Source: Clostridia bacterium | GTDB taxonomy: Bacteria > Bacillota > Clostridia > Oscillospirales > CAG-272 | DNA: 64,000 bases | Reading direction: 5' to 3' | Assembly: GCA_017540175.1 (NCBI GenBank) | Contig: JAFYBN010000059.1 | Coordinates: 3,768 to 67,767 of the forward strand | Shown here: positions 12,860-40,112 of the stretch, in pieces | Layout of the letters: every line of letters begins with the position of its first letter | How positions within the stretch are numbered: position 1 is the stretch's first letter | The notes under the pieces: generated by a model | What the model was told of the DNA's origin: nothing | Database searches by the model: none | The model's input: the letters and a program-made list of their open reading frames with translations, nothing else | Made by a program: the position numbers and the translations under genes

Positions 12860-12907
12860 GCCGTTTTCCTGCCTGTATGTTTTGAGGATATCGGAACGCA
12901 CCCGTGC

Positions 12908-18923: not shown

Positions 18924-19494
18924 AGTCTTTCAGCTCCTTTCCGAGTTTTTTCAGGCTTTTGTGCAGAATCAGCCCGACTGCCGCCGTGGTCATGCCGTGT
19001 TCTTCGGCGATCTCGCGGTAGGTCCGGTCGAAATAATAGCGTTCCACGACGATTTCCCGCGCGGGGGAGCCGAGGTTTTCGACGGCGCGGCGGGTCGCTG
19101 CCTCCCCCTCCGTCCGCAGAAGAACGGTGAGCGGATCGGTGCGGTCTCCCCCGTCCCCGGCTTCGCTCTCGTCCCCGTCCCCGCCGTCGTCGGAAGGGGG
19201 AAAGAGGGTGATTTTCGGGCGGCGCGCGTTTTTGCGGATGTAATCGGCCGTGACGTTCTGCGTCATCATCATGAGGTTCGCGTTTTGAACATGCTCCGTC
19301 TGACCCACGAAGCGGGATTTGTACCGCACGACCTTCAAAAAGACTTCCTCGGTCAGATCCTCCGCGAGCTCGCGGTTTTCGGCGAAGGAGATGCCGAGCC
19401 TTCGGCAGATCAGCGCCGTGACGTGCTTTTTTCTTTTTTCGTACAGTTCGCTGAGCTCCCGGCTGTCCCGGTCGCCGCTGTCCGCGAAGAGCAT
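18904..19494 (-). CDS. Sigma-70-family (ECF-like) RNA polymerase sigma factor
   Basis: Region 2 (DLTEEVFLKVVRY) and region 4 HTH (YREIAEEHGMTTAAVGLILHKSLKKL). Strong AAGGAGG RBS. Confidence 0.85.
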   Translation of the reverse strand: MLFADSGDRDSRELSELYEKRKKHVTALICRRLGISFAENRELAEDLTEEVFLKVVRYKSRFVGQTEHVQNANLMMMTQNVTADYIRKNARRPKITLFPPSDDGGDGDESEAGDGGDRTDPLTVLLRTEGEAATRRAVENLGSPAREIVVERYYFDRTYREIAEEHGMTTAAVGLILHKSLKKLGKELKDYAQTED

Positions 19495-21727: not shown

Positions 21728-21739
21728 GGAGGACAAGGA

Positions 21740-22591
21740 ATGAAACCGAAGAAAAAATCCGTCGGGGCACGGATCGGGAAGGCGGCGGTCTACGCGCTGC
21801 TCTCGCTCTGGACGCTGATCGTGCTCTTTCCGTTTTACTGGATGGTCCTGACCTCGTTCAAAAGCTACAGCTCCTACAACGCCGAGTTCGTTCCGCGCTT
21901 TTTCGTGACCGACCCGACGCTCGCGAATTACGGAAACGCGTTTTCCTCCGTTCCGCTCGGACGCTATTTTCTCAACACACTCATCTTCACCGCCGCAACG
22001 ACTGCGATCATGCTGATCGTGACGGTGCTCGCGGCGTTCGCGTTTTCCCGGCTCGAGTTTGCCGGAAAGAACATCGTCTTCGCGCTCTTTCTGTCGCTCA
22101 TGATGATCCCGAACGAGCTCGTGATCATCACGAATTTCGTCACCATCACGAACTGGGATATGCGCAACACCTTCCTCGGGCTGATTCTGCCGTCGGTCAC
22201 GTCGGTTTTCTATATCTATTTATTGAAAGAAAACTTCGAGCAGATCCCGGACGAGCTCTATAAAGCCGCGAAGGTGGACGGCACGTCCGATTTCAAATAC
22301 CTCGTGCGCGTGATGCTGCCGATCTGCCGCCCGACCCTCGTCACCGTGACGATTCTGAAGGTCATCGAATGCTGGAACTCCTATGTCTGGCCGCGGCTCA
22401 TCACGGACGACAAGTCGTATTTCCTCGTTTCGAACGGCATTCAGGAGATCCGCGAGAACGGCTTCGGGCGCGAAAACATCCCCGCGATGATGGCGGCGGT
22501 GGTGGTGATCTCCCTCCCGCTCATCGTCCTGTTTCTGATCTTCCGCAGCCGGATCATGGCGGGGGTCATGAGAGGGGGCACGAAAAAATGA
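21740..22591 (+). CDS. Carbohydrate ABC transporter permease (MalG/UgpE type)
   Basis: EAA loop LYKAAKVDGTSDFKYLVRVMLPICRP. 283 aa. Confidence 0.9.
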   Translation: MKPKKKSVGARIGKAAVYALLSLWTLIVLFPFYWMVLTSFKSYSSYNAEFVPRFFVTDPTLANYGNAFSSVPLGRYFLNTLIFTAATTAIMLIVTVLAAFAFSRLEFAGKNIVFALFLSLMMIPNELVIITNFVTITNWDMRNTFLGLILPSVTSVFYIYLLKENFEQIPDELYKAAKVDGTSDFKYLVRVMLPICRPTLVTVTILKVIECWNSYVWPRLITDDKSYFLVSNGIQEIRENGFGRENIPAMMAAVVVISLPLIVLFLIFRSRIMAGVMRGGTKK

Positions 22592-24189
22592 AGAGAGGGA
22601 AACTCTTCCCGGCTCTCCTTGCCGCTTTGCTTCTTGTGCCCCTCTTCGCCTCCTGCCACGGCTCCCGCGCGCTCGATCCGTTCGTGATGCCGGAGAGCTT
22701 TGACACGGGACGGCAGTTTGAGATCACCTTCTGGGCGAAGAACGACACGAACAAGACGCAGATGAAGGTCTACACCGACGCGGTCGCGGGCTTTGAGGCG
22801 CTTTATCCGAACGTGAAGGTGAATCTCCGCTTCTATACGGATTACGGGCGGATCTACAACGACGTGATCACGAACATCGCGACCCGCACGACGCCGAACG
22901 TCTGCGTCACCTACCCCGACCACATCGCGACCTATATCACGGGCGTGAACACGGTCGTTCCCCTCGACAGTCTGTTCGCAGATCCCTCCTACGGTTTCGG
23001 CGGCTCCGAGCTGAGATACGACGGACCAGAGCGGGACGAAATGGTCGAAAAATTCCTCGACGAATGTGTGATCGACGGCGAGCATTACGCCATCCCCTTC
23101 ATGCGCTCCACCGAGGCGTGCTATATCAACGTCACCATGCTCGAAAGCCTCGGCTATGAACTCCCCGACGTGCTGACGTGGGATTTCGTCTGGGAGGTCT
23201 CGGACCGGGCGGCGGAGAAGCGGGAGGACGGGATCTACAAGGCGAACGGCCAGAAGACCATGATCCCCTTCATCTACAAGTCCACGGACAACATGATGAT
23301 CCAGTACCTCGCCCAGCGCGGCGCGGGCTATTCCACGCCGGAGGGGGACATCCTTCTGTTCAACGATACCGCGCTCTCCCTGCTCAGGGACGTGGCGCGT
23401 CACACGGCGACGGGCGCGTTTTCCACCTTCAAGATTTCGAGCTATCCCGGCAATTTTCTCAACGCCGGTCAGTGCCTGTTCGCGGTCGACTCCACGGCGG
23501 GCGCGACCTGGATGGGAAGCCTCGCCCCGCACGCCGACATCCCGCCGGAGCAGTTCGTGGAGTACGAGATCGCGGTGCGCCCCATCCCGCAGGCGGACCC
23601 GGAAAACCCGAAAATGATCTCGCAGGGCCCCTCCGTCTGCGTCTTCAACAAGAGCGATCCGCAGGAGGTCCTCGCGTCGTGGCTGTTCGCGCAGTATCTG
23701 CTGACGAACGACGTGCAGATCGGATACGCCTCGAGCGAGGGCTACATTCCCGTGACGAAAAAAGCGCACCAAAGCGAGGCGTACCGGGAATACCTCGAGA
23801 GGGGCGGGGAAGACGGACTCGAACACTATGACGTGAAAATCGCCGCGACCCAGCTTCTGCTCTCAAACATCGACCGCACCTTCGTCACCCCGGTCTTCAA
23901 CGGCTCCGCGTCCCTGCGGGACGCCGCCGGACAGATGATCGAAAACACGTCGAAATCCGTGCGGCGCAGGGAGACCGTGGACGACGCGTATTTCGAGAAG
24001 CTCGTCTCCGACGTACGCTCGCTGTACCGGCTCGATCAGCACACCCCCGGCGCGGGAGGGAGCGGAGCGGAGCTCGGAAAACTGCCCGGCCCGTCCGTCG
24101 CGCTGATTGCCGCGCTTCTCGTCGCATGGCTGGTCATGGGCGGCGTCGTGCTCGCGAGATTTCTGCACAACAGGGAAGGAAAATCTTAA
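22588..24189 (+). CDS. Extracellular solute-binding lipoprotein (family 1) with an additional C-terminal hydrophobic anchor
   Basis: Start at the ATG at 22588 overlapping the upstream stop (ATGA). Lipobox LFASC, SBP body, and a C-terminal LPGPS + 20 hydrophobic residues + RFLHNREGKS. Confidence 0.85.
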   Translation: MKRGKLFPALLAALLLVPLFASCHGSRALDPFVMPESFDTGRQFEITFWAKNDTNKTQMKVYTDAVAGFEALYPNVKVNLRFYTDYGRIYNDVITNIATRTTPNVCVTYPDHIATYITGVNTVVPLDSLFADPSYGFGGSELRYDGPERDEMVEKFLDECVIDGEHYAIPFMRSTEACYINVTMLESLGYELPDVLTWDFVWEVSDRAAEKREDGIYKANGQKTMIPFIYKSTDNMMIQYLAQRGAGYSTPEGDILLFNDTALSLLRDVARHTATGAFSTFKISSYPGNFLNAGQCLFAVDSTAGATWMGSLAPHADIPPEQFVEYEIAVRPIPQADPENPKMISQGPSVCVFNKSDPQEVLASWLFAQYLLTNDVQIGYASSEGYIPVTKKAHQSEAYREYLERGGEDGLEHYDVKIAATQLLLSNIDRTFVTPVFNGSASLRDAAGQMIENTSKSVRRRETVDDAYFEKLVSDVRSLYRLDQHTPGAGGSGAELGKLPGPSVALIAALLVAWLVMGGVVLARFLHNREGKS

Positions 24190-26627: not shown

Positions 26628-26629
26628 AC

Positions 26630-26700
26630 CAGCGGTACAGGGATTCGAACCCCGACATACAGAGTCAGAGTCTGCTGTGCTACCTTTACACAATACCGCT
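26630..26700 (-). tRNA. tRNA-Gln (anticodon CUG), 71 nt, no encoded CCA
   Basis: Hand-folded cloverleaf: acceptor AGCGGTA/TACCGCT, D-arm GTGT-AAAGGTA-GCAC, anticodon arm GCAGA-CTCTGAC-TCTGT, variable loop ATGT, T-arm CGGGG-TTCGAAT-CCCTG, discriminator G. Confidence 0.9.
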
Positions 26701-26718
26701 GTTTCTCTGACGGGCTAT

Positions 26719-26747: not shown

Positions 26748-27327
26748 GGGCTTGACGAAAATTTTTTCGGGAAATGCAAAAATGCGGAAATCGATGCGGA
26801 ACCCACAGCCGGAGCCGCGCGCGGCGGAAGAGAAGGGGAGAATGTCGGAACTCTACACATTTGGCGCTTTTTCGGGCATGATTTTCGTTCCGCGGCGCGT
26901 TCCGAGGGGGAAATCCGGGGCCAAACGAGGGTTTTGGAGCGGTTTTTTCAATTTTGTGCATTCTGTCGATGTGTAGAAAATTTCGGCAAAATTTTATGCA
27001 AATCCTCCAAAGACAGATGTCGCCTTTTCATCTTGCCGTCACGGAGATACCACACAGAATTCGGGTGGACGCGCCAGTATAATTTACCCGGCGCAAAACA
27101 ATGGTCCGCGGCGCGTTTCCGTATCCGAAAAACAGCCTGTTTACAAGGCTTTTTCGGCATTTCGGATCGGGAGACAGTAAAAATTATTTACACTTGCAAT
27201 CCGCCCGTCCGGCGCGTCCGGGGCTTTTTCGCCCCGATCCGCGCGCGGCCGCTTTCGGCGGGAAGGTGAGGGAAGGACGAAGTCCGCCGCGGCCTTATGG
27301 GAACGGATGAAAGTCCGTGAAGCGCGC

Positions 27328-27356
27328 TTGACTTTTTTGTGAACATGTGCTATGAT
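27328..27356 (+). promoter_or_regulatory. Sigma-70 promoter of the 12.7-kb ABC-like operon
   Basis: TTGACT (27328-27333), 17 nt spacer, TATGAT (27351-27356) with TGc extended -10. Followed by a ~220-nt leader. Confidence 0.6.
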
Positions 27357-27578
27357 ATGGGCATATAAATATCGGGAGACGTGTCATTTCGCGCGTTTTC
27401 CGGGGATTTTCGGGTAAAAACCGGGGGACGGATCGCCTCGGTTTTGGCCCGAGAGTCCCGAATCCCATGCTTTCGGACGCTCGCTGCCCCGCTCGGGGAG
27501 AAGCACCCGTCGGGAAAGCGGCGGGCGGCGGCCGTCGGTCAGCGGTCGACGCTCAAAAAATTGCAGGAGGAAGGCTCT

Positions 27579-30500
27579 ATGAGAAAAACCCAAAGCAAAA
27601 AGCTGACATGCCTCGTGCTGTCGTTCCTGATGCTCTTGTCGGTTCTTCCCATGACGGTTTACGCCGCCGGAGAAGAAGAGGAAGCGCCGGCCCAGAGCGG
27701 CAGAACGACACTTCAGGAAATCAGCGAAACCCTCATCTCATTCTCTTACGCCGACTACGTTGAGCAGCCGGAGTACCAGAGTGCGTCGAGGGGCAAACAA
27801 ACGGTCGTGATCAAAGCGATTGACTATGACGCCGCCGCGACGACCGCGGAGGTGGAAATCGTTAACGACTACAATGTCTCCGCCGCCACCGGGGATGCCG
27901 GCAAGGGCAAATCCTTGAAGATGAGCGACGACGGCAAGGTCGTGTGGAAGGTCAACATCCCCGAAACGGGCCTCTACGCGATCAAGATGGATTACTGCTC
28001 CGTCACCGACAAGACGAACTCCATCGAGCGCGGCTTCTACATCAACGACGCGCTCCCGTTCGCGGAGGCGCGCGACCTCACGATGAAGAAGATCTGGGTC
28101 AACGCCTATACGAAGAACGAAGAAACCGGCGAAGAGCGGTTCGAAGTCGACTCCAACGGCAACGAGCTGCGTCCGGTGTCCTCCGTTGTGCACGAGTGGC
28201 AGGAATACGTGTTCATTGACCCGAACACCTTCTTCGCCGATCCGTTCGAATTCTATTTCGAAAAGGGCGAAAACACCATCGCGCTCAACGCGGTCCGCGA
28301 AGCGGTCGTGATTCAGAACATCACGATTTACCCCTACGAGGATCTCCCCTCGTACGAGGCGTACGCCGCGGGCAAATCCCCCGCAAACACGTCGGATAAG
28401 TACCACGTTGTCGCGGAGACCCCGTACAGAACGTCCGACTTCACCGTGTATCCGATTTATGACCGTAAATCGGCGCTGACGGAGCCGCAGGACGCTTCCA
28501 AGATCCGACTCAACACCATCGGTTCGGATAAGTGGCAGACCGCGAGCCAGTGGGTGGAATACGAAATCGAAGCTCCCGAAACGGGTCTGTACGAAGTCGT
28601 GTTCCGCTTCCGCCAGAACGAGCAGCAGGGTATGTACACCTCCCGCAAGCTCTATATCGACGGCAAGATCCCGTTCGAAGAAGCGAACTACCTGAAGTTC
28701 AACTACAATTCGAACTTCCAGGTGGCCGCGGCGAACGACGGCGCCGACACCTTCCAGTTCTACCTTGAGAAGGGCAAGCACACCCTCCGCCTCGAGGCTT
28801 CCCTCGGCGAGATGGGCAACGTTGTGCGCAAGGTTTCCGCCATCATGACCTCGATCAACAACGACTACCTCTCCCTCCTGAAGCTCACCGGCGCGAGCCC
28901 CGACGCGTACCGTGACTACGGTTTCGGCCGCGTGCTTCCCGAGGTGGTGCAGGACCTCGTCGTTCAGTCGAACAACCTGAAAGAGGTCATCTCCTACATC
29001 GAGAACATGGCGAACATCAAGTCCGAAAACTCCGCGACGCTCGACACCATCGCGCGTCTGCTCAGAAAGATGGGTACGGACGAAGATGAAATCGCGAAGA
29101 ACATGAGCCAGCTCAAGACCCAGATCGGTAACCTCGGTTCCTGGATCTCCTCCGCGAAGAACCAGCCGCTCGAAATCGACTGGATCGACATCCAGCCCGC
29201 GGGCGTGAAGTATCCGAAGGCGGAAGGCAACTTCTTCCAGTCCCTCTGGTTCGAGCTGAAGCAGTTCTTTGCATCCTTCTTTACCGATTATAACTCCCTC
29301 GGCGCTTCCGTGGACGGCAAGAAGGCCGACCGGAAGGTCGAAGTCTGGGTCACCGCGAACCGCGACCAGGCGCAGATCACCCGTAACCTCATGGACAACG
29401 ATTTCGGTCCCACGACCGGCATCGACGCGTCCCTGAAGCTCGTCGCGGGCGGCACGCTGCTTCCTTCCGTTCTCGCGGGCGTCGGCCCCGACGTAGCGCT
29501 TCCCGGCACGGGCGCGGACCCGATCCAGTACGCGATCCGTTCCGCCGTTGTGGCGATCAACCCCGAAGCCTATGAGGACACGACGGGGCTGAAGCAGAAG
29601 GAGATCGACAAGTACAACGAATACTCTCAGATCTTCTCGAACTTCCACGATATCGAAAAGCGCTTCACCGCTGCGGCGATGATCCCGCTGACGCTGTACG
29701 GCAAGACCTACGGTCTGCCGGATAAGCAGACGTGGAACATGATGTTCTACCGCACCGACATCCTCGCGAACCTCGGTCTTGAGGTCCCGAGAACATGGGA
29801 CGACCTGCTCGCCGCCATCCCGGTGCTCCAGTTCAACAACATGACCATCGGTCTGTCGCAGGACTACCAGATGTACATGTACCAGCTCGGCGGTCACCTC
29901 TGGGCGGACGACGGCATGAGAATCAACCTCGACGCGAACCTCTCGCTCGAAGCGTTTGAGACCATGTGCAACATGTTCACGCAGTACTCCCTGCCGATCT
30001 CCTACGACTTCGCGAACCGCTTCAGAACCGGTGAAATGCCGATCGGCATCGCGGGTTATACCTATTATAATAACATCATCATCTTCGCGACCGAGCTTGC
30101 GGGTCTGTGGGAATTCGGTCCCGTTCCCGGCTTCCTCCAGGAAGACGGCACGATCAACCACACCGCAATGTCCGGCTCCGACGCGCTCGTTATGATGTCG
30201 GGCGTGAGGGACGTCGATGCCGCGTGGACCTTCATGTGCTGGTACACCGACACAAAGTTCCAGGTCGACTACTCCAACGAAATGGTAGCGATCCTCGGTC
30301 CCGCTGCGAAGAACCCGACCGCGAACCAGGAGGCTCTCGAAGAGCTCCCGTGGACTTCCCGCGAGTACGGTCAGCTGATGAAGCAGATGGATGTGACGAT
30401 CGCCGTTACCCAGTATCCCGGCTCCTACATCCTCGGCCGTTATACCAGCTTCGCATTCCTCAACGCGTACAACAACAAGGCGGACCCGGTTGACTCCCTG

Positions 30501-30809
30501 CTCGGCTACATCAACATCATCAACAAGGAAATCAACCGTAAGAGAACCGAGTTCAACCTCGAAACTCTTGAAGTCGGTCAGACCCTCGCATCCAAGCGTC
30601 TCGGTCAGGCGGAGGAAGCCATCGCCAAACTGAGCGACACGCAGAAGGGCTCCGCCGCCGTCTCCGCCGCAAGCGCGGCCATCGCCTCGCACGACATCGA
30701 AGCCCTCCGCGCGGCGGCTGACGGACTCGGAACCTCCGATGAAGCTCTCGCGGTCATCGCAGGATATCTGAGAGACGCTGCCGGCGCTCTCGAGTCCTAT
30801 CTTGACTGA
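27579..30809 (+). CDS. Secreted 1076-aa protein: two carbohydrate-binding-module-like domains, a helical region and a family-1 extracellular solute-binding domain
   Basis: AGGAGGAAGG RBS. SPase-I-type signal (…PMTVYA/AGEEEE). Internal duplication (PETGLYAIKMDY…YINDALPFAEA… versus PETGLYEVVFRF…YIDGKIPFEEA…). C-terminal SBP-like region (VEVWVTANRD…GKTYGLPDKQTWNMMFYRTDIL…). Confidence 0.8.
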   Translation: MRKTQSKKLTCLVLSFLMLLSVLPMTVYAAGEEEEAPAQSGRTTLQEISETLISFSYADYVEQPEYQSASRGKQTVVIKAIDYDAAATTAEVEIVNDYNVSAATGDAGKGKSLKMSDDGKVVWKVNIPETGLYAIKMDYCSVTDKTNSIERGFYINDALPFAEARDLTMKKIWVNAYTKNEETGEERFEVDSNGNELRPVSSVVHEWQEYVFIDPNTFFADPFEFYFEKGENTIALNAVREAVVIQNITIYPYEDLPSYEAYAAGKSPANTSDKYHVVAETPYRTSDFTVYPIYDRKSALTEPQDASKIRLNTIGSDKWQTASQWVEYEIEAPETGLYEVVFRFRQNEQQGMYTSRKLYIDGKIPFEEANYLKFNYNSNFQVAAANDGADTFQFYLEKGKHTLRLEASLGEMGNVVRKVSAIMTSINNDYLSLLKLTGASPDAYRDYGFGRVLPEVVQDLVVQSNNLKEVISYIENMANIKSENSATLDTIARLLRKMGTDEDEIAKNMSQLKTQIGNLGSWISSAKNQPLEIDWIDIQPAGVKYPKAEGNFFQSLWFELKQFFASFFTDYNSLGASVDGKKADRKVEVWVTANRDQAQITRNLMDNDFGPTTGIDASLKLVAGGTLLPSVLAGVGPDVALPGTGADPIQYAIRSAVVAINPEAYEDTTGLKQKEIDKYNEYSQIFSNFHDIEKRFTAAAMIPLTLYGKTYGLPDKQTWNMMFYRTDILANLGLEVPRTWDDLLAAIPVLQFNNMTIGLSQDYQMYMYQLGGHLWADDGMRINLDANLSLEAFETMCNMFTQYSLPISYDFANRFRTGEMPIGIAGYTYYNNIIIFATELAGLWEFGPVPGFLQEDGTINHTAMSGSDALVMMSGVRDVDAAWTFMCWYTDTKFQVDYSNEMVAILGPAAKNPTANQEALEELPWTSREYGQLMKQMDVTIAVTQYPGSYILGRYTSFAFLNAYNNKADPVDSLLGYINIINKEINRKRTEFNLETLEVGQTLASKRLGQAEEAIAKLSDTQKGSAAVSAASAAIASHDIEALRAAADGLGTSDEALAVIAGYLRDAAGALESYLD

Positions 30810-30828
30810 ACCGTGAAAGGAGAGAGAC

Positions 30829-31773
30829 ATGTCAAAAAACACTGACAGACAAGCCAAGACGCGTCACGAGATGACAAAGAGCGAGTGGACGTGGTTTCTG
30901 ATCAAGAGAAACAAAACGGCATACTTCATGATCGCGCCGTTTATGATCCTCTTCTTCATCTTCACCATCATCCCGGTCGCTCTCTCCCTCGTGCTCAGTC
31001 TGACGTCGTTCAACATGCTCCAGTGGCCGAAGTTCGTCTTCATGGACAACTACATCACCCTGTTCCTTGACGACGACCTCTTCATCACCGCTCTGAAGAA
31101 CACGCTGATCTTCGCGGCGGTCACCGGCCCCGCTTCGTACATTATTTCCTTCGTCGTTGCGTGGTTCATCAACGAGCTGCCTCCGAAGGTCCGCGCGATC
31201 GTTACCCTCGTCTTCTACGCGCCGTCCATCGCCGGCAACGTCTACCTGATCTGGCAGACGATCTTCTCCTCGGACTCCTACGGTCTGATGAACGGTTTCC
31301 TGCTCCAGTACGGTATCATAGACGAACCGATCCTGTGGTTCCAGAACGCGAAATACGTCATGCCGCTCTGTATCATGGTCGCGCTCTGGACGTCCCTCGG
31401 TACCTCCTTCCTGTCCTTCATCGCAGGTCTTCAGGGCATCAACAAGAGCTTGTTCGAGGCCGGCGCGATCGACGGTATCAAGAACCGCTGGCAGGAGCTC
31501 TGGTACATCACCCTGCCGTCCATGAAGCCTCAGCTGATGTTCGGCGCGATCATGTCCATTACCGGCTCCTTCAACTTCGGCGGCATCGTTACAGCGCTTG
31601 CCGGCAACCCGTCCGTGGATTACGTCGCATACACGCTGACACACCATTTGGAAGAATATCAGAACAACCGCTGGGAGGTCGGTTACGCCTCAGCGATCTC
31701 GTTCCTGCTCTTCCTCATGATGATCGGCATGAACGTCGTGATCTCCAAGCTGATTTCTAAGTTGGGAGAATAA
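30829..31773 (+). CDS. Carbohydrate ABC transporter permease (MalF type), pair 1
   Basis: 6 TM helices. EAA loop GLQGINKSLFEAGAIDGIKNRWQELWYITLPSMKP. Confidence 0.88.
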   Translation: MSKNTDRQAKTRHEMTKSEWTWFLIKRNKTAYFMIAPFMILFFIFTIIPVALSLVLSLTSFNMLQWPKFVFMDNYITLFLDDDLFITALKNTLIFAAVTGPASYIISFVVAWFINELPPKVRAIVTLVFYAPSIAGNVYLIWQTIFSSDSYGLMNGFLLQYGIIDEPILWFQNAKYVMPLCIMVALWTSLGTSFLSFIAGLQGINKSLFEAGAIDGIKNRWQELWYITLPSMKPQLMFGAIMSITGSFNFGGIVTALAGNPSVDYVAYTLTHHLEEYQNNRWEVGYASAISFLLFLMMIGMNVVISKLISKLGE

Positions 31774-31776
31774 GTC

Positions 31777-32652
31777 ATGGCAAGAAGATTAAGAACAAGA
31801 AAACATGAGGTAGTCCTCAACCGGTCGGCGGGCGGCGACGTCGGGATCACGATCATCCTCACCCTCTTCGGCATCGCGATGTTCCTCCCGATGTACTACA
31901 CCATCATTCAGTCTCTGAAACCCCTGAACGAGCTGTTCTACTTCCCGCCGCGCTTCTACGTCTCCCATCCGACGATGAACAACTTCGCCGACCTCTTCAA
32001 CCTGATGGGCGACTCTTGGGTACCGTTCTCCCGCTACATCTTCAACACGGTTCTGATTTCCGTGGGCGGTACGTTCGGCAACCTCGTTCTCTCCTCCCTC
32101 TGCGCGTACGCTCTTGCGAAGATCGACTTCCCGGGCGCGAAGGGCTTCTTCTGGATCATCCAGAAATCCCTGATGTTCACGGCGACCGTTACCGGTATCG
32201 TCAACTTCATCACGCTCTCCATGCTCGGCTGGATCGATACCTACCTTGCGATCATCATTCCCGCATGGTGCTCGACGCTCGGCCTCTACCTGATGAAGCA
32301 GTTCATGGAATCGAACGTCACCACCGAAGTTCTGGAGTCCGCCCGTCTGGACGGCGCTTCCGAACTCAGGACCTTCTGGTCGATCGCGATGCCGATGGTC
32401 AAGCCGGCATGGCTGACCCTCATCATCTACTCCTTCCAGGGCCTCTGGAACGCGGGCGCATCTTCCTTCATCTATTCCGAGCAGTTAAAGACCCTGAACT
32501 ACGCGATCTCCCAGATCACGAACGGTACGATCGCGCGTTCCGGCGCAGCGGCTGCCTCCACCGTCGTCATGATGATCGTTCCGATTCTGGTCTTCGTTAT
32601 TTCCCAGTCGAACATCATCGAGACGATGGGTTCGAGCGGCATGAAAGACTAA
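31777..32652 (+). CDS. Carbohydrate ABC transporter permease (MalG type), pair 1
   Basis: EAA loop VLESARLDGASELRTFWSIAMPMVKP. 3-nt gap to the upstream gene. Confidence 0.88.
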   Translation: MARRLRTRKHEVVLNRSAGGDVGITIILTLFGIAMFLPMYYTIIQSLKPLNELFYFPPRFYVSHPTMNNFADLFNLMGDSWVPFSRYIFNTVLISVGGTFGNLVLSSLCAYALAKIDFPGAKGFFWIIQKSLMFTATVTGIVNFITLSMLGWIDTYLAIIIPAWCSTLGLYLMKQFMESNVTTEVLESARLDGASELRTFWSIAMPMVKPAWLTLIIYSFQGLWNAGASSFIYSEQLKTLNYAISQITNGTIARSGAAAASTVVMMIVPILVFVISQSNIIETMGSSGMKD

Positions 32653-32662
32653 GGAGGACTGT

Positions 32663-34795
32663 ATGAAAAGAATCACAAGCTTACTCCTTTGCGCGCTGCT
32701 GCTCATGTCTGTCCTCGCTGTGACGGCTTCCGCGAACGCGCCGTACGCGACCTACACCTACTCCGCGCAGGGGCAGGTGCTGACCTCTCCGACGGCATAC
32801 GTTCCCGATACCGTTGTCGACTCCTCATACATGGGCGTCAGCCCCGCAATCGACGACCCCCGCGACCTCTTCATAGGACCTGATCTCAAGGTCTACATCG
32901 TGGATGCCGCGAACAACCGCGTGGTGGTCCTCGACCGTTACTACAAGCTCCAGTTCTACATCACCAACTTCACGAACGAACACGGCGTGCCGGACAGCTT
33001 CAACAACCCCTCCGGCGTGTTCGTCAATGAAACCAACATCTACGTCTGCGACACCGACAACAACCGTATCATCATGTTCGATACGGAAGGCAACTACATC
33101 AAGATCATTCCGAAACCGGAATCCTCCCTCTTCGAGGAAGGCTCGATCTACAAGCCGATCGCCTGCGTCGCCGACGAATACGGACGTCTCTTCGTCGTAT
33201 CCTCCACGACCTACCAGGGCATCATCGTGCTGAACGACGACGGCGACTTCTACGGCTTCATCGGTGCGCAGAAGGTCACCATCTCCGCTCTCGAAATCCT
33301 GTGGAGAAAGATCCAGACGGATGAACAGAGAGCGCAGAGCCAGGAATACGTCTCCACCGAGTTCAACAACATCTCGATCGACAAGGACAACTTCATCTAC
33401 GTGACGACGTCCTCCATCGAAGAGAGCCAGCAGCAGGGCGCGATCAACTCCAAATCCAAGAGCTCCGACTACGCCCCCGTCAAGAAGCTGAACGCGTCCG
33501 GTTCCGACGTTATGAAGCGCAACGGCTTCTACCCGCCGTCCGGCGAGGTCCGCATCACCAACCTCTCGACCGCGAACATCACGGGCGCTTCGAAGATCAT
33601 CGACGCCGCGGTGGGTCCAGAGGGAACGTGGTCGATCATCGACGAAAAGCGCGCAAAGGTCTTCACGTACAACGACAACGGCGACCTGCTCTTCGTCTTC
33701 GGCGATATCGGTCAGCAGACCGGCAACATCCAGTCCGTTGAAGCGATCGCTTATCAGGGCACGAAGATCCTTCTGCTCGACAAGACGAACGACAACTTCG
33801 TCGTGTACCGCCGCACCGAATACGGCGATCTGCTGATCCGGGCGCTCGAGCACGACAACAACCGTCAGTATGACATCACCATCGACGACTGGACGGAGAT
33901 CCTGAAGAGAAACAACAACTTCGACTCCGCCTACATCCAGATCGGAAAGTCCCTGTACCGTCAGGGCAAGTACGAAGAGGCGATGGATTACTACAAGTCC
34001 GCGTACGAGACCGAGAACTACTCCGAAGCCTATAAGGAAATCCGGAAGAACTGGGCAAACAAGTTCTTCTGGCTCATCCCGATCGCGATCGTCGCCATCT
34101 GCATCCTGCTTGCGAAGTTCTTCGGACACGCGGGCAAGGTCAACAAGCGCACGGCTCTCAAGGTCGGACGCAAGAGCCTGAAGGAGGAACTGCTCTACGC
34201 CTTCCATGTGATCCTGCATCCGTTCGACGGATTCTGGGATCTGAAGCATGAGCAGCGAGGCTCGGTCAAATCCGGCTTCGTCATCCTCCTCATCACCGTT
34301 ATCGTTTACTTCTACAACACCATCGGTACCGGCTACATCTTCAACCCGCGTCCGTCCACGAGCTTCAACATCATGGGCGCGATCACGGCCGTTGTGGTGC
34401 CGCTGCTCCTGTGGACTGTCGCGAACTGGTGTCTCACCACGCTGTTCGAAGGCGAAGGCTCGATGAGCGACATCTTCACCGCGTGCTGCTACGCGATGAC
34501 GCCTCTGCCGATGATCATCCTGCCCGTCACCATCATTTCGAACTTCCTGACCAGAACCGAGGGCGGCATCATCACGATGCTCACCTCCTTCGCGTACATC
34601 TGGATGGGCATCCTCGTCTTCGTCGGCATGATGGTCACGCATGACTACTCCGTCGGCAAGAACATCCTGACCTGCATCGCGACCATCGTCGGCATGGCGT
34701 TCATCATGTTCATCGGTGTGCTCTTCTCCAGCCTGATGGCGAAGATCGTCAGCTTCGTCGTCAACATCTTCAAAGAAGTCACATACCGAGTATAA
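32663..34795 (+). CDS. Membrane protein: signal peptide, extracytoplasmic NHL-repeat beta-propeller, TPR-like hairpin and C-terminal Yip1-like polytopic domain
   Basis: NHL-type blades (DLFIGPDLKVYIVDAANNRVVVLD; PSGVFVNETNIYVCDTDNNRIIMFD; KPIACVADEYGRLFVVS). TPR-like GKSLYRQGKYEEAMDYYKSAY. About 6 hydrophobic helices in the last ~240 aa. AAGGAGGA RBS. Confidence 0.75.
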   Translation: MKRITSLLLCALLLMSVLAVTASANAPYATYTYSAQGQVLTSPTAYVPDTVVDSSYMGVSPAIDDPRDLFIGPDLKVYIVDAANNRVVVLDRYYKLQFYITNFTNEHGVPDSFNNPSGVFVNETNIYVCDTDNNRIIMFDTEGNYIKIIPKPESSLFEEGSIYKPIACVADEYGRLFVVSSTTYQGIIVLNDDGDFYGFIGAQKVTISALEILWRKIQTDEQRAQSQEYVSTEFNNISIDKDNFIYVTTSSIEESQQQGAINSKSKSSDYAPVKKLNASGSDVMKRNGFYPPSGEVRITNLSTANITGASKIIDAAVGPEGTWSIIDEKRAKVFTYNDNGDLLFVFGDIGQQTGNIQSVEAIAYQGTKILLLDKTNDNFVVYRRTEYGDLLIRALEHDNNRQYDITIDDWTEILKRNNNFDSAYIQIGKSLYRQGKYEEAMDYYKSAYETENYSEAYKEIRKNWANKFFWLIPIAIVAICILLAKFFGHAGKVNKRTALKVGRKSLKEELLYAFHVILHPFDGFWDLKHEQRGSVKSGFVILLITVIVYFYNTIGTGYIFNPRPSTSFNIMGAITAVVVPLLLWTVANWCLTTLFEGEGSMSDIFTACCYAMTPLPMIILPVTIISNFLTRTEGGIITMLTSFAYIWMGILVFVGMMVTHDYSVGKNILTCIATIVGMAFIMFIGVLFSSLMAKIVSFVVNIFKEVTYRV

Positions 34796-34814
34796 CAGAG
34801 AAGGAGAGTATGAT

Positions 34815-37800
34815 ATGAAAGTTAAAAGAATCGTTTCGGCGTTCCTGACTCTCGTCATGGTTCTCGGTTCTCTGGTGATTTCCGTGGATGCCGCGTATGA
34901 AGACAAAATCGACGAAAACGGCGATCCGATCATCGACTACATGAGCGAGAACTACGCGAGTGCGGACGCAAAGCTTGCCGACATGATCCTCGTGAAGGAA
35001 CAGAACGGCTACCAGCTCTGGTACGAAGAGTTCACCGGCGAAATCGCCGTCGTGGACCTCGCCACCGGCGTTCCGACATTCTCGAACCCGTGGAACCTCA
35101 ACAACGGCTATCAGGGGATTTCGGAAGCTGTCAAGCAGCAGCTGATGTCCCAGCTCATCATCACCTACCTGGAAAACGACGTCCAGAAGACGATGAACAG
35201 CTACTACGAAGCCGCGCTTCGCAACCAGATCACCAAGAAGAACATCAAAAACGGTATCCGCGTGGAGTACATCCTCGGTGAAGAACAGACGACCCGTCTG
35301 GTTCCCCGTCTGATCCGCACCGACCGTATGGATACCCTCATCCTCGAGAACATCGACGACGACTGGCTCCACGAAAAGTTCATCGCCTTCTACACGAAGA
35401 AGGATAAGGACGACGAGTCCCTGACCGAGCGCGGCGTCGCGGAAATGATCGCGAAATTCCCGATCACCGCGGAAATGCCCGTTTACGTCTGCGACCCGGA
35501 TATCAAGGCCAGAGAGCTCAGAGAACTTGAAAACATCGTCAAGAATTTCTGCCCGCTCTACACGTACGAAGAACTTGACTACGACCACGAAATCACCCGT
35601 TACACGGGCGCCGACGCCGCTCCTCCGCGTTTCCGCATGAGCATTGAGTACACCCTCAACGACTGGGGTCTCGAAGCGAGACTTCCCGCCGCCGGTATCG
35701 ATTTCGACGAATCCGCGTACAAGTTCCAGACGGTGTCGTTCCTCCCGTTCTTCGGCGCAGGCAGCAACGAGCACACCGGCTACACCTTCATTCCCGACGG
35801 CTCCGGCGCTCTGATCCGCCACGAGCAGTTCAAGGGACAGTCCGTAAACCTCTCCGGTCAGCTCTACGGTTCCGACTACGCTTACCACGAAATCAGCGGT
35901 CAGCACGCGGAATCCATGAGAATGCCGGTCTACGGCGTCGTGACCGATTACCCGTTCGACATTCATGAGAAAGCTGCGCCCGAGGAAGCCACGGATTCCG
36001 GAGCAGCCGAGATCGCGGCCACGGCGGCGGAAGAAGAGCCGACCGGCTACACCAACGGCTACTTCGCCATCATCACGGAAGGCGACTCGCTGGCATCGCT
36101 CATGGCGGTCTGCGGCGGCTCGCTCCACCCGTACAACAGCGTTTACCCGATGTTCACGCCTCGTCCGTCCGACGAATACAACCTTGCCGATTCGATTTCC
36201 GTATCCGGCAGCGCGACATGGACGGTCACCTCGAAGAGAAAGTACACCAACTCCTACCGCGTCCAGTTCGTCTTCCTCACCGACAAGAAAGTCGCCGAGG
36301 AAAACGGCATCAAGGATTACTACAGCGCTGACTGGGTCGGCATGGCTACGGCATACCGCGATTACCTCACCGAGAAGGGCGACCTCGTCAAGATGACCGG
36401 CGATCAGGTGAAGGACGACGTTCCGCTCTTCATCGAGACCTTCGGTTCCACCAAGACGACCGAAAGAGTTCTCTCCTTCCCGATCGAAGTCGATACTCCG
36501 CTCACGACCTTCGATGACATCAAGACGATGTACACCGAACTGACGGATACCGGCATCAAGAATGTCAACTTCAAGCTCACGGGTTACGCGAACGGCGGTC
36601 TTTCCCCGACCGTACCGTACAGACTGAAGTGGATGAAGGTTGTAGGCGGCAACAAAGGCTTCACCGATCTTGTCGACTATGCGAAGGAAAAGAATTTCGA
36701 CGTCTATCCCGATTTCGACTTTGTGTACATCCGCAACCAGACGCTCTTTGACGGTATTTCGCTGAAGCAGCACGCGGTCCGCACCATCGATGACCGCTAC
36801 ACCACGAGACGTGCGTATGACGCAGCGACCCAGTCCTTCGACCGGTCCTTCGCCATCGCGATCTCCCCGGCGTACTTCGACAGACTGTACAAAGAGTTCG
36901 GACCCAACTACCTCTCCTATGGCAACGACTCCATCGCCGTCTCCACGCTCGGTACCGACCTCAACTCCGACTTTGACGAAGATGAGCCCTACCACCGCGA
37001 GGACGACAAGGAGTTTACGCTTGAACTCCTTGAGAACATCAAGAACGACTACGCGAACGTCATGATCGAAGAAGGCAACGCCTACGCGGTCAAGTACGCC
37101 GACGTCATTCTGAAAACGTCCCTGACCTCTTCCAACTATGTGAAGGCAAGCGAATCCGTCCCGTTCAAGGGCATGGTTTACCACGCGTCGAAGGTCTTCA
37201 CCGGCTCCGCTACGAACATGGAGGGCGACCTCAACGAGTCCATCCTCCACGCGATCGAAAACGGCGCGGCGATGTACTTCATCCTCTCCTACCAGAACAC
37301 GAGCGTGCTGAAGGAAGACTTCCGTATGTCGAAGTATTACTCCGTCGCGTACGAAATCTGGAAGGATGACGTCGCGCAGTATTACAACATGCTCAACGAC
37401 GCGATCAAGGATCTGCAGACCTCCTACATCGTCGATCACGAATTCCTGAGCGCAGAACGTGTTCCCGACGAGGATGAAGCGGAAGCCGACCGCATCGCGG
37501 AGGAGATCGCCACCGCTGAAGCAAAGGCAGAGGAAGAAGCCAAGGCGGAAAAAGCAGCGAGAGCACAGAGACTCAAGGAACGTCTCGATGCGGAAGCCGC
37601 CGCAGCCGCGGGCGAAGTGACCGAGGAACCCGCGACGGAAGAAGAGACCACCGAGACTCCCCAGGAGGAGGAAGCTCCTCAGGAAACCGTGATCGCCGCC
37701 AACGGACGTGAAGTTCCCGCCGGTTACACGCTCGGCGAGGACGGCCTCACCCTGTTCGACGAAAACGGTGAAGAAGTGCCGTGGCCTGAAGAAGAAGCCG

Positions 37801-37964
37801 CGGAAGCTCCCGACAAGTACAAGACGCAGTCCGGCACCGTCGTCCGCGTCGAATACGAGGGCAACGTGAACTTCATCCTCAACTACAACTCCTTCGAAAT
37901 CAAGGTCACGTGGAACGGTCAGACCTACACGATCGCTCCTCTGAGCTATGAGAGAATCGGTTAA
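34815..37964 (+). CDS. Secreted/anchored 1049-aa protein resembling the DUF5696 family, with an acidic coiled-coil and a C-terminal beta domain
   Basis: N-terminal signal/anchor (IVSAFLTLVMVLGSLVISVDA). Large alpha/beta body. EAEADRIAEEIATAEAKAEEEAKAEKAARAQRLKERLDAEAAAAA coiled-coil. The family call comes from memory of annotation patterns and is not verified. Confidence 0.6.
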   Translation: MKVKRIVSAFLTLVMVLGSLVISVDAAYEDKIDENGDPIIDYMSENYASADAKLADMILVKEQNGYQLWYEEFTGEIAVVDLATGVPTFSNPWNLNNGYQGISEAVKQQLMSQLIITYLENDVQKTMNSYYEAALRNQITKKNIKNGIRVEYILGEEQTTRLVPRLIRTDRMDTLILENIDDDWLHEKFIAFYTKKDKDDESLTERGVAEMIAKFPITAEMPVYVCDPDIKARELRELENIVKNFCPLYTYEELDYDHEITRYTGADAAPPRFRMSIEYTLNDWGLEARLPAAGIDFDESAYKFQTVSFLPFFGAGSNEHTGYTFIPDGSGALIRHEQFKGQSVNLSGQLYGSDYAYHEISGQHAESMRMPVYGVVTDYPFDIHEKAAPEEATDSGAAEIAATAAEEEPTGYTNGYFAIITEGDSLASLMAVCGGSLHPYNSVYPMFTPRPSDEYNLADSISVSGSATWTVTSKRKYTNSYRVQFVFLTDKKVAEENGIKDYYSADWVGMATAYRDYLTEKGDLVKMTGDQVKDDVPLFIETFGSTKTTERVLSFPIEVDTPLTTFDDIKTMYTELTDTGIKNVNFKLTGYANGGLSPTVPYRLKWMKVVGGNKGFTDLVDYAKEKNFDVYPDFDFVYIRNQTLFDGISLKQHAVRTIDDRYTTRRAYDAATQSFDRSFAIAISPAYFDRLYKEFGPNYLSYGNDSIAVSTLGTDLNSDFDEDEPYHREDDKEFTLELLENIKNDYANVMIEEGNAYAVKYADVILKTSLTSSNYVKASESVPFKGMVYHASKVFTGSATNMEGDLNESILHAIENGAAMYFILSYQNTSVLKEDFRMSKYYSVAYEIWKDDVAQYYNMLNDAIKDLQTSYIVDHEFLSAERVPDEDEAEADRIAEEIATAEAKAEEEAKAEKAARAQRLKERLDAEAAAAAGEVTEEPATEEETTETPQEEEAPQETVIAANGREVPAGYTLGEDGLTLFDENGEEVPWPEEEAAEAPDKYKTQSGTVVRVEYEGNVNFILNYNSFEIKVTWNGQTYTIAPLSYERIG

Positions 37965-37982
37965 AGAAAGGGGAGTGCATTC

Positions 37983-38984
37983 ATGAACTTAAACATTGAC
38001 GCCGGTAAAGGCGGAAAAAAGCAAAAGATTCAGCTCGACGCCCCCGGAAAGAAAAAGAAACACAACGCATCCCTTGAGTCGAAAAAAGCGAGAGCAGGAT
38101 GGATCTTCGTTCTCCCCTTCGTGATCGGTTTCGTTCTGATCTACATCCCCATTATTTACGACTCGATCAAGTACTCCTTCAACGAGATCAAGATCCTGGT
38201 CGGCGGCGGTTACAAGCTTGAACCCGTCGGATTCAAAAACTACTCCGACGCGCTCTTCGTCGATACCTCCTATGTAACGACGCTGATTTCAGGTCTTAAA
38301 CAGCTCGTCCTTGACATCCCCTCGATCGTCATCTTCTCCCTGTTCGTGGCGATCATCCTGAACCAGAAGATCGCGGGCCGCGCCGCGTTCCGTGCGATCT
38401 TCTTCATCCCCGTTATTCTGACCACCGGTCTGATCGCCAACATCGACGCCGCGAACAACCTCCAGAGCTACATGGAGAACACGCAGGGTATCGACGACGG
38501 CTCCGGGCAGACCTCAACGGCAACACAGATCGTCTCAGTGCTCGATGTCGAGCGATTGTTCGACAACATGATGGTCGGTACGGAAATCGTGGAATACGTC
38601 GTGCAGATGGTGAACAACATCTTCAACATTGTTAACCGCTGCGGCGTTCAGATGCTTGTCTTCCTCTCCGGTCTGCAGTCCATCTCCCCCGCGATTTACG
38701 AATCCTGCTCCATCGACGGCGCGTCCGGCTGGGAAACCTTCTGGAAGATCACTCTCCCGATGGTAAGCCCGATGATCTTGGTGAATACGATTTATACCAT
38801 CATCGACGCATTTACATCAAACGACAACCAGGTCATGTCGTACATCGCGCGTGTCTATGAACAGGCGGACGGCAACGTCCTGTCCTCCGCGATGTCGTGG
38901 ATGTACTTCCTGATTGTCATCCTGATCATTGCGGCGGTTGCCGGTATCCTCAGTGCGTTCGTATTCTACCAGAGAAGAGACTGA
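37983..38984 (+). CDS. Carbohydrate ABC transporter permease (MalF type), pair 2, with a Lys-rich N-terminal extension
   Basis: EAA loop GLQSISPAIYESCSIDGASGWETFWKITLPMVSP. 333 aa. Confidence 0.85.
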   Translation: MNLNIDAGKGGKKQKIQLDAPGKKKKHNASLESKKARAGWIFVLPFVIGFVLIYIPIIYDSIKYSFNEIKILVGGGYKLEPVGFKNYSDALFVDTSYVTTLISGLKQLVLDIPSIVIFSLFVAIILNQKIAGRAAFRAIFFIPVILTTGLIANIDAANNLQSYMENTQGIDDGSGQTSTATQIVSVLDVERLFDNMMVGTEIVEYVVQMVNNIFNIVNRCGVQMLVFLSGLQSISPAIYESCSIDGASGWETFWKITLPMVSPMILVNTIYTIIDAFTSNDNQVMSYIARVYEQADGNVLSSAMSWMYFLIVILIIAAVAGILSAFVFYQRRD

Positions 38985-38998
38985 GAAAGGAGGAAATT

Positions 38999-40057
38999 AT
39001 GAATAACGTTGAATCCGCACCGAAAATCAAAAGAGAGACAAAGAACACGATTCGCGTCGATTTTGAACGTACTCCTTTTTGGGAGAGAGTGAAAGCGAAA
39101 CTCCTGAACCTGTACACCCTGAAAAAGGTTGTCTGGTATCTCTTCCGCCTCCTCCTGCTGCTCGGTATCTCTTACGTCATCCTGTTCCCGTTCTTCTCGA
39201 AGATTTCCTCGTCCTTCATGTCGAAGGAAGACTTCGTGGACGTGACGGTCATCCTGATCCCGAAGCACCCGAACCTTGATATCTACCGCGCAATCATCAA
39301 GGACAACAAGTACTTTGAAGCGCTGGGCAACACGTTCGTTCTTTCCCTCATCTGCGCTGCCATCCAGACCTTCGTCTGCATGTTCATCGCATATGGCTTC
39401 GCAAAGTTCAAATTCAAGGGCAACGGCCTCCTGTTCATGTGCGTCATCTTCACCCTCGTTGTGCCGCACGCGACCTTGCAGTTGTCACTGTTCATGAAGT
39501 TCAGGTATTTCGACGTCTTGGGCATCTTGAACTTGCTAGGCGGAGGTGTATTTGACGGCCTCAACATAACAGGAGGGGTCACATCCGTCAACTTTATAAA
39601 CACGAACTGGCCGCTGTATATCCTATCGTTGACCGGTCTCGGGTTTAAAAACGGTCTGTACATCTTCATGCTCCGTCAGTTCTTCCGCGGTATTCCGGAC
39701 GAACTTGAAGAATCCGCTTACCTCGACGGCTCCGGCATCATGAGAACCTTCTTCTCGATCATTATCCCGCTTTCCACCACGATGATGATCACGGTCTTCA
39801 TGTTCGCGTTCTGCTGGCAGTGGACGGATAACTTCTACACCGAGCTGTTCTACACGACCGCGGGTCAGAAACTCCTCCCGGATATCATCAAGATTCCGAA
39901 ATCCCTCGACACGAACTATGCAGGTCAGTCCCTGTACTCCTCGGCGATTACAAACACCTGCGGTATCATGATCATTGCGCCGCTGATCGTCCTCTACCTC
40001 TTCGGGCAGAGATACATCGTTCAGGGTATCGAGCGCTCCGGTCTGACCGCGGATTAA
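38999..40057 (+). CDS. Carbohydrate ABC transporter permease (MalG type), pair 2
   Basis: Start at the ATG at 38999 (AAAGGAGGAAA RBS). EAA loop LEESAYLDGSGIMRTFFSIIIPLS. 352 aa. Confidence 0.85.
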   Translation: MNNVESAPKIKRETKNTIRVDFERTPFWERVKAKLLNLYTLKKVVWYLFRLLLLLGISYVILFPFFSKISSSFMSKEDFVDVTVILIPKHPNLDIYRAIIKDNKYFEALGNTFVLSLICAAIQTFVCMFIAYGFAKFKFKGNGLLFMCVIFTLVVPHATLQLSLFMKFRYFDVLGILNLLGGGVFDGLNITGGVTSVNFINTNWPLYILSLTGLGFKNGLYIFMLRQFFRGIPDELEESAYLDGSGIMRTFFSIIIPLSTTMMITVFMFAFCWQWTDNFYTELFYTTAGQKLLPDIIKIPKSLDTNYAGQSLYSSAITNTCGIMIIAPLIVLYLFGQRYIVQGIERSGLTAD

Positions 40058-40082
40058 TCCCGCAAAGGCAAACCAGCAAAAA

Positions 40083-40112
40083 AGAGGATTCTTCGTGAAT
40101 CCTCTTTTTTTT
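40083..40112. terminator. Strong (bidirectional) rho-independent terminator ending the 12.7-kb operon
   Basis: 9-bp perfect stem agaggattc/gaatcctct, 5-nt loop, 8-T run, and an A-run upstream. Confidence 0.8.

Follow-up and report, generated by a model that had tools for sequence, protein, structure and literature searches.

Carbohydrate importers of the CUT1 type, among them the MsmX-dependent systems of B. subtilis, MalEFGK2 and UgpBAEC, are built from one heterodimer of MalF/MalG-type transmembrane domains (TMDs) with EAA coupling loops, together with a MalE-like extracytoplasmic solute-binding protein (SBP). CUT1 loci are often found without an ATPase gene of their own, a situation common in Firmicutes, and sharing of the ATPase is established for the MsmX, MsiK and MsmK systems. 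Here we describe a seven-gene cassette that keeps the parts of such an importer but arranges them differently. It lies in a stretch of 64,000 nucleotides from Clostridia bacterium (contig JAFYBN010000059.1 of assembly GCA_017540175.1, positions 3,768 to 67,767), which we refer to in its entirety as the window. Like the CUT1 systems, the cassette has TMDs of the MalF/MalG or UgpA/UgpE type with EAA loops, and an SBP with a MalE-like oligosaccharide-binding fold; it also contains no ATPase gene, although a UgpC gene adjoins its Paenibacillus orthologue. Unlike them, it holds two complete TMD heterodimers in invariant order, its SBP is about 2.5 times the normal size, with two domains resembling carbohydrate-binding modules (CBMs) and additional helical modules, and a Yip1/NHL protein and a 1000-aa exoprotein resembling glycoside hydrolases (GHs) always lie between the two permease pairs. 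The seven open reading frames (ORFs) run from 27579 to 40057 on the forward strand, with intergenic gaps of 19, 3, 10, 19, 18 and 14 nt, and are as follows.

27579-30809, forward: g1, giant SBP, 1076 aa from an ATG behind a GGAGG site
30829-31773, forward: g2, 314 aa, permease pair 1, MalF/UgpA-type
31777-32652, forward: g3, 291 aa, permease pair 1, MalG/UgpE-type
32663-34795, forward: g4, 710 aa, NHL/TPR/Yip1 membrane protein
34815-37964, forward: g5, 1049 aa, secreted DUF5696 protein
37983-38984, forward: g6, 333 aa, permease pair 2, MalF/UgpA-type
38999-40057, forward: g7, 352 aa from an ATG behind AGGAGG, permease pair 2, MalG/UgpE-type

Each part is of a known kind, but the invariant combination matches no characterised system. 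An initial annotation of this DNA had proposed a seven-gene operon between one promoter and one strong terminator, containing neither an ATPase nor a regulator, and the ORFs, gaps and boundaries are all as claimed: no gene for a nucleotide-binding domain (NBD) or transcription factor is encoded within 27328-40112.

The cassette is widespread, its gene order being shared by many Gram-positive bacteria of gut and soil. Two exact peptide patterns, run against one genome per GTDB species (approximately 186,000), matched at least 417 encoding loci, of which the best 80 were fetched, and 88 loci were compared in all. In the fetched loci the DUF5696 protein is 41-79% identical to g5, and the source organisms are gut and rumen metagenome-assembled genomes (MAGs) labelled Oscillospiraceae, 'Ruminococcus', Eubacteriales, Lachnospiraceae and similar. 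Of the 88 loci, 65 have the full set of seven genes, collinear and on one strand in 64 of them; the incomplete loci reflect contig ends, or a match to g5 that is broken up by its low-complexity linker. Both gene content and gene order also hold in a clade of roughly 40% identity. Permeases evolve slowest (median identity 66-75%), and the SBP and DUF5696 proteins fastest (52%). Beyond these genomes, the cassette recurs in order, at 25-57% identity, in Butyrivibrio fibrisolvens and Paenibacillus cellulosilyticus, which provided the two matching plasmid records, both from cultured organisms. The gene order in these two is as follows.

Butyrivibrio fibrisolvens D1, pNP243 (243-kb plasmid): YesM-type histidine kinase, response regulator, GH43, giant SBP, two permeases, NHL protein, separate YIP1 protein, DUF5696 protein, two permeases, two ordinary SBPs (501 and 536 aa, SBP_bac_1/8)
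Paenibacillus cellulosilyticus, plasmid: UgpC ATPase, then directly the seven genes

Conservation of the order SBP, pair 1, Yip1/NHL, DUF5696, pair 2 had been put forward as a check on the initial annotation, and the order is kept even at 25% identity and between bacterial classes. As had been stated there, the Butyrivibrio and Paenibacillus genes are annotated merely as 'YIP1 family protein', 'DUF5696 domain-containing protein' and permease. Nor did we find, in the searchable literature, any homologous cluster tied to a substrate; searches on DUF5696, on Yip1 with ABC or solute-binding, and on NHL with Butyrivibrio or Paenibacillus returned nothing relevant.

Three details of the distribution deserve mention. 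Two contigs of MAG RGIG4734 (loci L021 and L045) each carry a DUF5696 gene, 58% and 62% identical to g5, so some genomes may have two cassette copies, or the bin may be mixed. A locus on a contig labelled Methanocorpusculum sp. (L005, JAGARL010000319.1) contains a cassette with per-gene identities near those of an Oscillospiraceae contig (L006), and is probably a mis-binned bacterial contig. A metagenome scan with a divergent DUF5696 member, P0249, gave no match.

That there are two complete MalFG-type pairs with EAA loops, as first annotated, is agreed upon by Pfam, NCBIfam and the motif itself. BPD_transp_1 is found above its gathering score in g2 (43.7 bits), g3, g6 and g7. The best NCBIfam matches are UgpA/MalF/GlcT models for g2 and g6, with UgpA at the top for g2, and UgpE/MalG/GlcU models for g3 and g7. 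The EAA coupling loop is at residue 210 in g2 (EAGAIDG...LP), 187 in g3, 240 in g6 and 238 in g7, and all four permeases should therefore couple to NBDs. Where a CUT1 system has one TMD heterodimer, two are present here, and the two differ: identity is 22% between g2 and g6 and, over the C-terminal third only, about 27% between g3 and g7, while g6 has an enlarged loop between transmembrane segments 3 and 4, and g7 has an N-terminal extension. BLASTP places the positional orthologues of g2, g3, g6 and g7 at 53%, 57%, 40% and 42% identity in Butyrivibrio, and at 41%, 38%, 34% and 27% in Paenibacillus, respectively. Orthology is position-specific: identities are 38-57% between first pairs, 27-42% between second pairs and 21-27% across pairs. 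Judged by these identities, the permease pairs do not stem from a recent duplication. Because each pair is orthologous to its counterpart in both Butyrivibrio and Paenibacillus, the twin-pair design predates the divergence of Clostridia and Bacilli, the two pairs having been distinct before that split.

Identities of 21-27% between pairs are what one would expect of transporters with different substrates, and fit an alternative in which two independent CUT1 importers merely share an operon. Under this alternative g1 serves pair 1 only, g4 and g5 are accessory exoproteins uncoupled from the translocators, and pair 2 relies on ordinary SBPs whose genes lie at other sites or, as in Butyrivibrio, downstream. 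The two ordinary SBP genes directly after pair 2 on the Butyrivibrio plasmid are as this alternative predicts, and the frequent lack of an ATPase gene at CUT1 loci is compatible with it. Those same two genes bear on an earlier claim, that both pairs share a single SBP: the pairs are there, but that they share one SBP is a supposition. Against independent importers, no extra SBP lies within the cassette in any of the 60-odd complete Clostridial loci, and the gene order is unbroken from Oscillospiraceae-like genomes to Paenibacillus, a constancy that chance co-transcription gives no reason to expect. We consider it unlikely that the two importers are independent.

The giant SBP, g1, begins with an N-terminal signal or anchor helix, the one N-terminal hydrophobic segment detected by hydropathy. 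Two CBM-like beta-sandwiches (residues ~70-255 and ~275-410) and a helical bundle (412-527) follow, and then a complete oligosaccharide-type SBP (~585-1000) and a helical tail. Pfam returns weak CBM_35 and Golvesin_C matches for g1, and its homologues contain CBM_35, CBM_6, SBP_bac_1 and SBP_bac_8 domains. The SBP half has no Pfam match at E <= 0.01; compared with PDB sequences it matches sugar SBPs at E values of 1e-5 to 1e-3. An AlphaFold2 (AF2) model of g1 has a mean predicted local distance difference test score (pLDDT) of 80.7, and Foldseek matches its SBP part (E 1e-14, target-normalised TM-score 0.72-0.79) to the SBPs for sophoro-oligosaccharide, cycloisomalto-oligosaccharide and cycloalternan and to MalE. 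Residues ~585-1000 are thus a MalE-like extracytoplasmic SBP of the kind found in CUT1 systems.

Between the pairs, g4 had been read as an NHL-propeller/TPR/Yip1 protein, and Pfam and PDB matches concur. Behind its signal peptide come an NHL beta-propeller on the extracytoplasmic side (~60-380), a TPR region (~390-460) and six C-terminal transmembrane segments, among which the Yip1 domain is found (514-683). The multi-pass Yip1 domain (PF04893) scores 54.1 bits over these residues, above the cut-off of 28.6, so that g4 belongs to the family; Pfam also matches NHL and TPR, and comparison with PDB finds NHL propellers (Thin, TRIM71 and PknD) and TPR proteins. In Butyrivibrio the equivalent of g4 is two genes, NHL and YIP1, and the stand-alone 'YIP1 family protein' is 44% identical to the Yip1 part of g4. 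A bacterial Yip1-family protein, YknW, is encoded with the ABC transporter YknXYZ of Bacillus and is required for its assembly (PMC4887032). The cassette resembles YknWXYZ in that a Yip1-domain membrane protein is co-encoded with an ABC transporter. It differs in that YknYZ is a MacB-type exporter working with a membrane-fusion protein (MFP) whereas the partners in the cassette are type-I importers, and in that the Yip1 domain of the cassette is fused to a large NHL-propeller/TPR ectodomain (or adjacent to it, in Butyrivibrio). Pfam finds no MacB or MFP domain in any of the seven cassette proteins, which sets them apart from YknWXYZ-type systems.

The second large protein between the pairs, g5, was first described as DUF5696-like, and it is a true DUF5696 (PF18952), with 458.2 bits against a threshold of 25.6; the Butyrivibrio and Paenibacillus orthologues score 615 and 623 bits. 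A signal peptide, the one N-terminal hydrophobic segment given by hydropathy, comes first; an N-terminal domain, a beta-sandwich (~273-490) and a (beta/alpha)8-like barrel (~500-870) follow, and beyond a long helix (886-931) the chain passes through an acidic linker into a small beta domain (~1000-1049). Its structure was predicted by AF2 from an alignment of 44 homologues (pLDDT 69.6, predicted template modelling score 0.62), giving a fold in which the N-terminal half is rich in beta structure and beta/alpha elements alternate thereafter. Foldseek comparison of this model with PDB yielded, in each case with a probability of 1.00, the following matches.

GH129-like 3,6-anhydro-D-galactosidase DagB (8rzk, 5opq): E 1e-21
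GH129 alpha-N-acetylgalactosaminidase NagBb (5wzn): E 1e-15
GH101 endo-alpha-N-acetylgalactosaminidases: E 1e-11
GH31 and GH36 enzymes: about 1e-7

The g5 model thus most resembles DagB, NagBb and GH101 enzymes, and an N-terminal beta-sandwich followed by a TIM barrel is common to all of them and, on this moderate-confidence model, to g5. In DagB the beta-sandwich and TIM barrel are accompanied by an Ig-like domain, and the residues D486, E517 and E531 are essential together with D202, an acidic residue supplied by the N-terminal domain (PMC5698469). DUF5696 departs from these enzymes in sequence, at about 10-12% identity, and in architecture, adding an N-terminal domain, the long helix, the acidic linker and the C-terminal beta domain. 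The earlier statement that no nameable glycoside-hydrolase signature is visible thus stands at the level of sequence and gives way at the level of fold, where the model is GH129-like and GH101-like. Residue conservation was assessed over 239 diverse DUF5696 members and over a set of 30 sequences, the Butyrivibrio and Paenibacillus orthologues among them, and eight polar residues are invariant: E278, D328 (in a PDGSG motif), D354, R728, N755, H790, N801 and E815. On the strength of this predicted GH129/GH101-like fold, g5 is probably a glycosidase that represents a new family, and it is likely to be the missing enzyme of the cassette.

The family is large, with 4100 representatives at 50% clustering (E <= 1e-3), many of them 1200-2500 aa long. 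Among 270 members none is fused to SBP or Yip1 proteins, and no other Pfam domain occurs in the long proteins of 2100-2500 aa. Two variable acidic regions are evident in g5. The first, a low-complexity loop at residues ~386-409 (window positions ~35970-36041), is an insertion hot spot, with ~540 residues inserted in P0249; the second is the linker at residues ~930-1000.

Turning to the source of energy, no CUT1-type ATPase is encoded inside the operon or within 10 kb of it in 85 of 86 Clostridial loci. The window contains a single CUT1-type NBD, 6.5 kb upstream of the cassette and in an operon of its own.

19717-24189, forward: separate CUT1 transporter operon, with the unusual order ATPase (19717-20841, forward), permease, permease, SBP

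The product of 19717-20841 has ABC_tran and TOBE_2 domains, matches the UgpC, MalK and GlcV models over its full length, and is 40% identical to the UgpC encoded directly upstream of the Paenibacillus cassette. An identity as a PotA-like protein, considered in view of a nearby Orn/Lys/Arg decarboxylase gene, was ruled out by the similarity to UgpC, MalK and GlcV and by the UgpA/UgpE-like permeases that adjoin it. It is a candidate for the energising ATPase, though one outside the operon and a putative partner only by analogy. The initial annotation had suggested a shared MsmX-type ATPase, with 19717-20841 as an example. Sharing in the style of MsmX is plausible for the cassette, a UgpC gene heading the Paenibacillus version, but this ATPase, unlike MsmX of B. 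subtilis, is no orphan, since it heads its own operon.

Taking these observations together, we propose that the cassette encodes a composite machine of Gram-positive bacteria for the capture, trimming and import of extracellular glycan, powered by a shared ATPase, and we put the chances that this is correct at about even. In such a machine, g1 would capture glycan through its two CBM-like domains and hold oligosaccharides in its MalE-like domain. The secreted DUF5696 protein, as a distant structural relative of GH129-like, GH101, GH31 and GH36 alpha-glycosidases, would trim the captured glycan at the cell surface. The membrane-embedded g4 could act as an accessory or scaffold that keeps the soluble ectoproteins beside the translocators, as YknW does for YknXYZ. 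The anciently diverged CUT1-type heterodimers g2g3 and g6g7 would then import the products, probably as two size or linkage classes, both energised by an MsmX/UgpC/MalK-type ATPase encoded elsewhere. Gene content, synteny and folds support the original suggestion of a glycan-capture and import machine rather than a simple importer; we infer from them its function and, within it, catalysis by DUF5696, physical association of the parts, which SBP serves pair 2 and the identity of the ATPase. That the substrate is an alpha-linked glycan, or one from plants or a host, is a guess.

Several observations weigh against this proposal. The g5 model is of moderate confidence only (pLDDT 69.6). No Pfam GH family is found in DUF5696 proteins at E <= 10, so these lack the sequence hallmarks of GH129 and GH101, and DUF5696 profiles searched against PDB gave a marginal 120-residue match to NagBb (E = 0.1 to 0.7) plus low-complexity noise. 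The catalytic Asp nucleophile is D435 in NagBb and D486 in DagB, but an attempt to map catalytic residues onto GH129 or GH101 by sequence could place no DUF5696 residue, and the catalytic Asp/Glu are thus not mapped in DUF5696. Two candidate acids, D719 and D721, lie in the loop that follows strand 4 of the barrel, but they are kept in only about 83% and 76% of the 239 members (D719 in 26 of the 30 sequences of the smaller set), and E278, D328 and D354, acids that never vary, are located in the beta-sandwich. Furthermore, a complex of the cassette proteins is hypothetical, and no substrate can be deduced, the sole informative neighbour being GH43 and the fold relatives being alpha-glycosidases. 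Finally, in Oscillospiraceae-like genomes the cassette sits amid housekeeping genes, with no adjoining CAZyme (carbohydrate-active enzyme), regulator or ATPase; such surroundings are unusual for a nutrient-specific locus.

Acids that are not universal at the canonical barrel positions, and the lack of a GH sequence signature, could mean that DUF5696 is a non-catalytic pseudo-glycosidase, a surface protein that binds and delivers glycan and acts as the receptor for pair 2. The order of receptor then permease pair would in that case occur twice, g1 before pair 1 and g5 before pair 2. Invariance of eight polar residues over very deep divergence would suit an active site, however, and the DUF5696 family, very large and often with long extracellular extensions, looks like one of secreted enzymes; we also know of no precedent for a receptor other than an SBP docking on a type-I importer. 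A pseudo-glycosidase therefore seems to us improbable, and we retain trimming by g5 as part of the proposed machine.

How closely the parts of a capture, trimming and import machine might be joined is a separate matter. They could form a single surface 'Gram-positive utilisome', in which Yip1 bridges both CUT1 translocators within the membrane, the NHL/TPR ectodomain docks the CBM-SBP and the DUF5696 protein, the latter as first member of a new glycoside-hydrolase family, and a shared MsmX-type ATPase drives import. Such an assembly would physically link the capture and cleavage of glycan to the import of two product classes. We know of no description of such an architecture for ABC importers, and we entertain it tentatively, as somewhat unlikely. 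Comparison with Gram-positive polysaccharide utilisation loci (PULs) and the Sus-like utilisomes of Bacteroidetes is instructive here. As in those systems, one locus encodes the binding of glycan, its depolymerisation outside the cell and its import, and the Butyrivibrio version has in addition a sensor kinase, a regulator and GH43, as Gram-positive PULs do. Co-localised regulator and CAZyme genes of the sort that define a PUL are restricted to that version, being absent from the window and from the Oscillospiraceae-like loci. In contrast to Sus-like utilisomes, the cassette has no TonB-dependent transporter or SusD, and complex formation is hypothetical.

The elements of the control region, and the terminator, are listed below.

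26952-26978, forward: distal non-coding box, TTTGTGCATTCTGTCGATGTGTAGAAA, 27 nt, ~600 nt upstream of g1
27328-27356, forward: sigma-A-type promoter, TTGACT-17-TATGAT with TG upstream of the -10, 10/12 match to consensus
27357-27578, forward: 5' leader, ~220 nt, structured, ending in a GGAGG ribosome-binding site
~40078-40112, forward: intrinsic terminator, A-run, GAGGATTC-TTCGT-GAATCCTC, T8, with an 8-bp GC-containing stem and a 5-nt loop

A bare consensus match of the promoter is no better than chance, as the scan found 4 sites where 6.4 were expected. An alignment of the window with 18 related loci (19 in total) nevertheless shows next to no variation in the -35 box, T-rich spacer, extended -10 or +1 region. 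The proteins of these loci are only 60-79% identical, and the promoter is therefore real despite its chance-level consensus score. An internal promoter-like site at 30043-30071 was dismissed as a chance match, the scan having given fewer sites than shuffles. The leader stretch 27362-27590 (229 nt) folds with z = -5.25 against shuffles; a conserved hairpin just after the transcription start was considered and rejected, as RNAalifold gave a near-zero consensus energy and covariation is weak. Comparison of the leader and upstream region with Rfam revealed no riboswitch or known RNA, the matches being tRNA-Gln and one sub-threshold chance hit. The terminator (folding energy -19.3 kcal/mol, z = -4.63) was read directly from the letters; it was not picked up by the automatic scan, probably because of pairing between the A-run and the T-run.

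The distal box is also conserved. The pattern TTTGTGCANNNNGTNNATGTGTAGAAA is at an equal relative position in 11 loci, among them the deeply diverged L044, L079 and L082, regardless of which gene adjoins upstream, and the consensus is TTTGTGCA-N4-GT-N2-ATGTGTAGAAA. Related boxes occur near 26990-27005 and 27073-27092, and in many loci the distal box is followed by a TTTGTGCAnnnnTGCACAAA palindrome and by a GGTAAATATAATTTACC-like box. The distal box may serve as an operator, recognised by a regulator whose gene lies elsewhere, or as a distal promoter for the cassette. Directly upstream of this control region is a tRNA-Gln (CTG) gene (26629-26701, reverse strand), whose own promoter (26747-26719, reverse strand) is a perfect 12/12 consensus match.

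Across 57 loci no conserved regulator gene was found near the cassette, and the neighbour seen most often, upstream in 26 of the 57, is a ROK glucokinase-like gene. Conserved neighbours were considered as a clue to the substrate, and set aside given that the ROK gene is in only these 26 and the remainder are housekeeping genes. Core genes surround the cassette in Oscillospiraceae-like genomes (tRNA-Gln, VanY-type carboxypeptidase, rRNA methylase, L13, S9, NifS/NifU and alaS), which would suit a housekeeping role: recycling of the cell's own surface glycopolymer, be it wall polysaccharide, capsule or extracellular polysaccharide, with DUF5696 trimming it and the twin importers recovering the fragments. 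The near-consensus and highly conserved promoter, unaccompanied by a dedicated regulator, points the same way, as does the strong conservation of the permeases (median identities as given above). On the other hand, the Butyrivibrio cassette is on a plasmid beside a sugar-sensing two-component system and GH43, in the manner of nutrient-acquisition loci; wall-synthesis genes are not consistently adjacent, and the conserved distal box suggests regulation in trans. We judge recycling to be quite unlikely, and continue to favour capture and import of extracellular glycan.

Elsewhere in the window, the reverse strand carries a probable unit for a sigma factor of the extracytoplasmic function type (16000-19494) and a pair of adjoining genes.

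18904-19494, reverse: sigma factor, Sigma70_r2/r4
18249-18923, reverse: 224-aa protein with no Pfam matches, possibly an anti-sigma factor
16000-18339, reverse: 779-aa lipoprotein-like protein whose C-terminal part matches SBP_bac_1
10544-12901, reverse: fused GT4 glycosyltransferase/polysaccharide pyruvyl transferase, 785 aa
12908-15130, reverse: radical-SAM DUF3362 protein, adjoining the preceding gene

If the proposed machine is as we describe it, DUF5696, whose clustering at 50% identity yields over 4000 representatives, would define a new glycoside-hydrolase family, and bacterial Yip1 and NHL proteins would gain a role in import. The cassette would also represent a way in which monoderm bacteria couple extracellular glycan processing to two ABC translocators. 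With two cultured carriers, Butyrivibrio and Paenibacillus, this reading is directly testable. The best matches being mostly gut and rumen Clostridia, it has a bearing on how the abundant, uncultured Oscillospiraceae of the gut feed.

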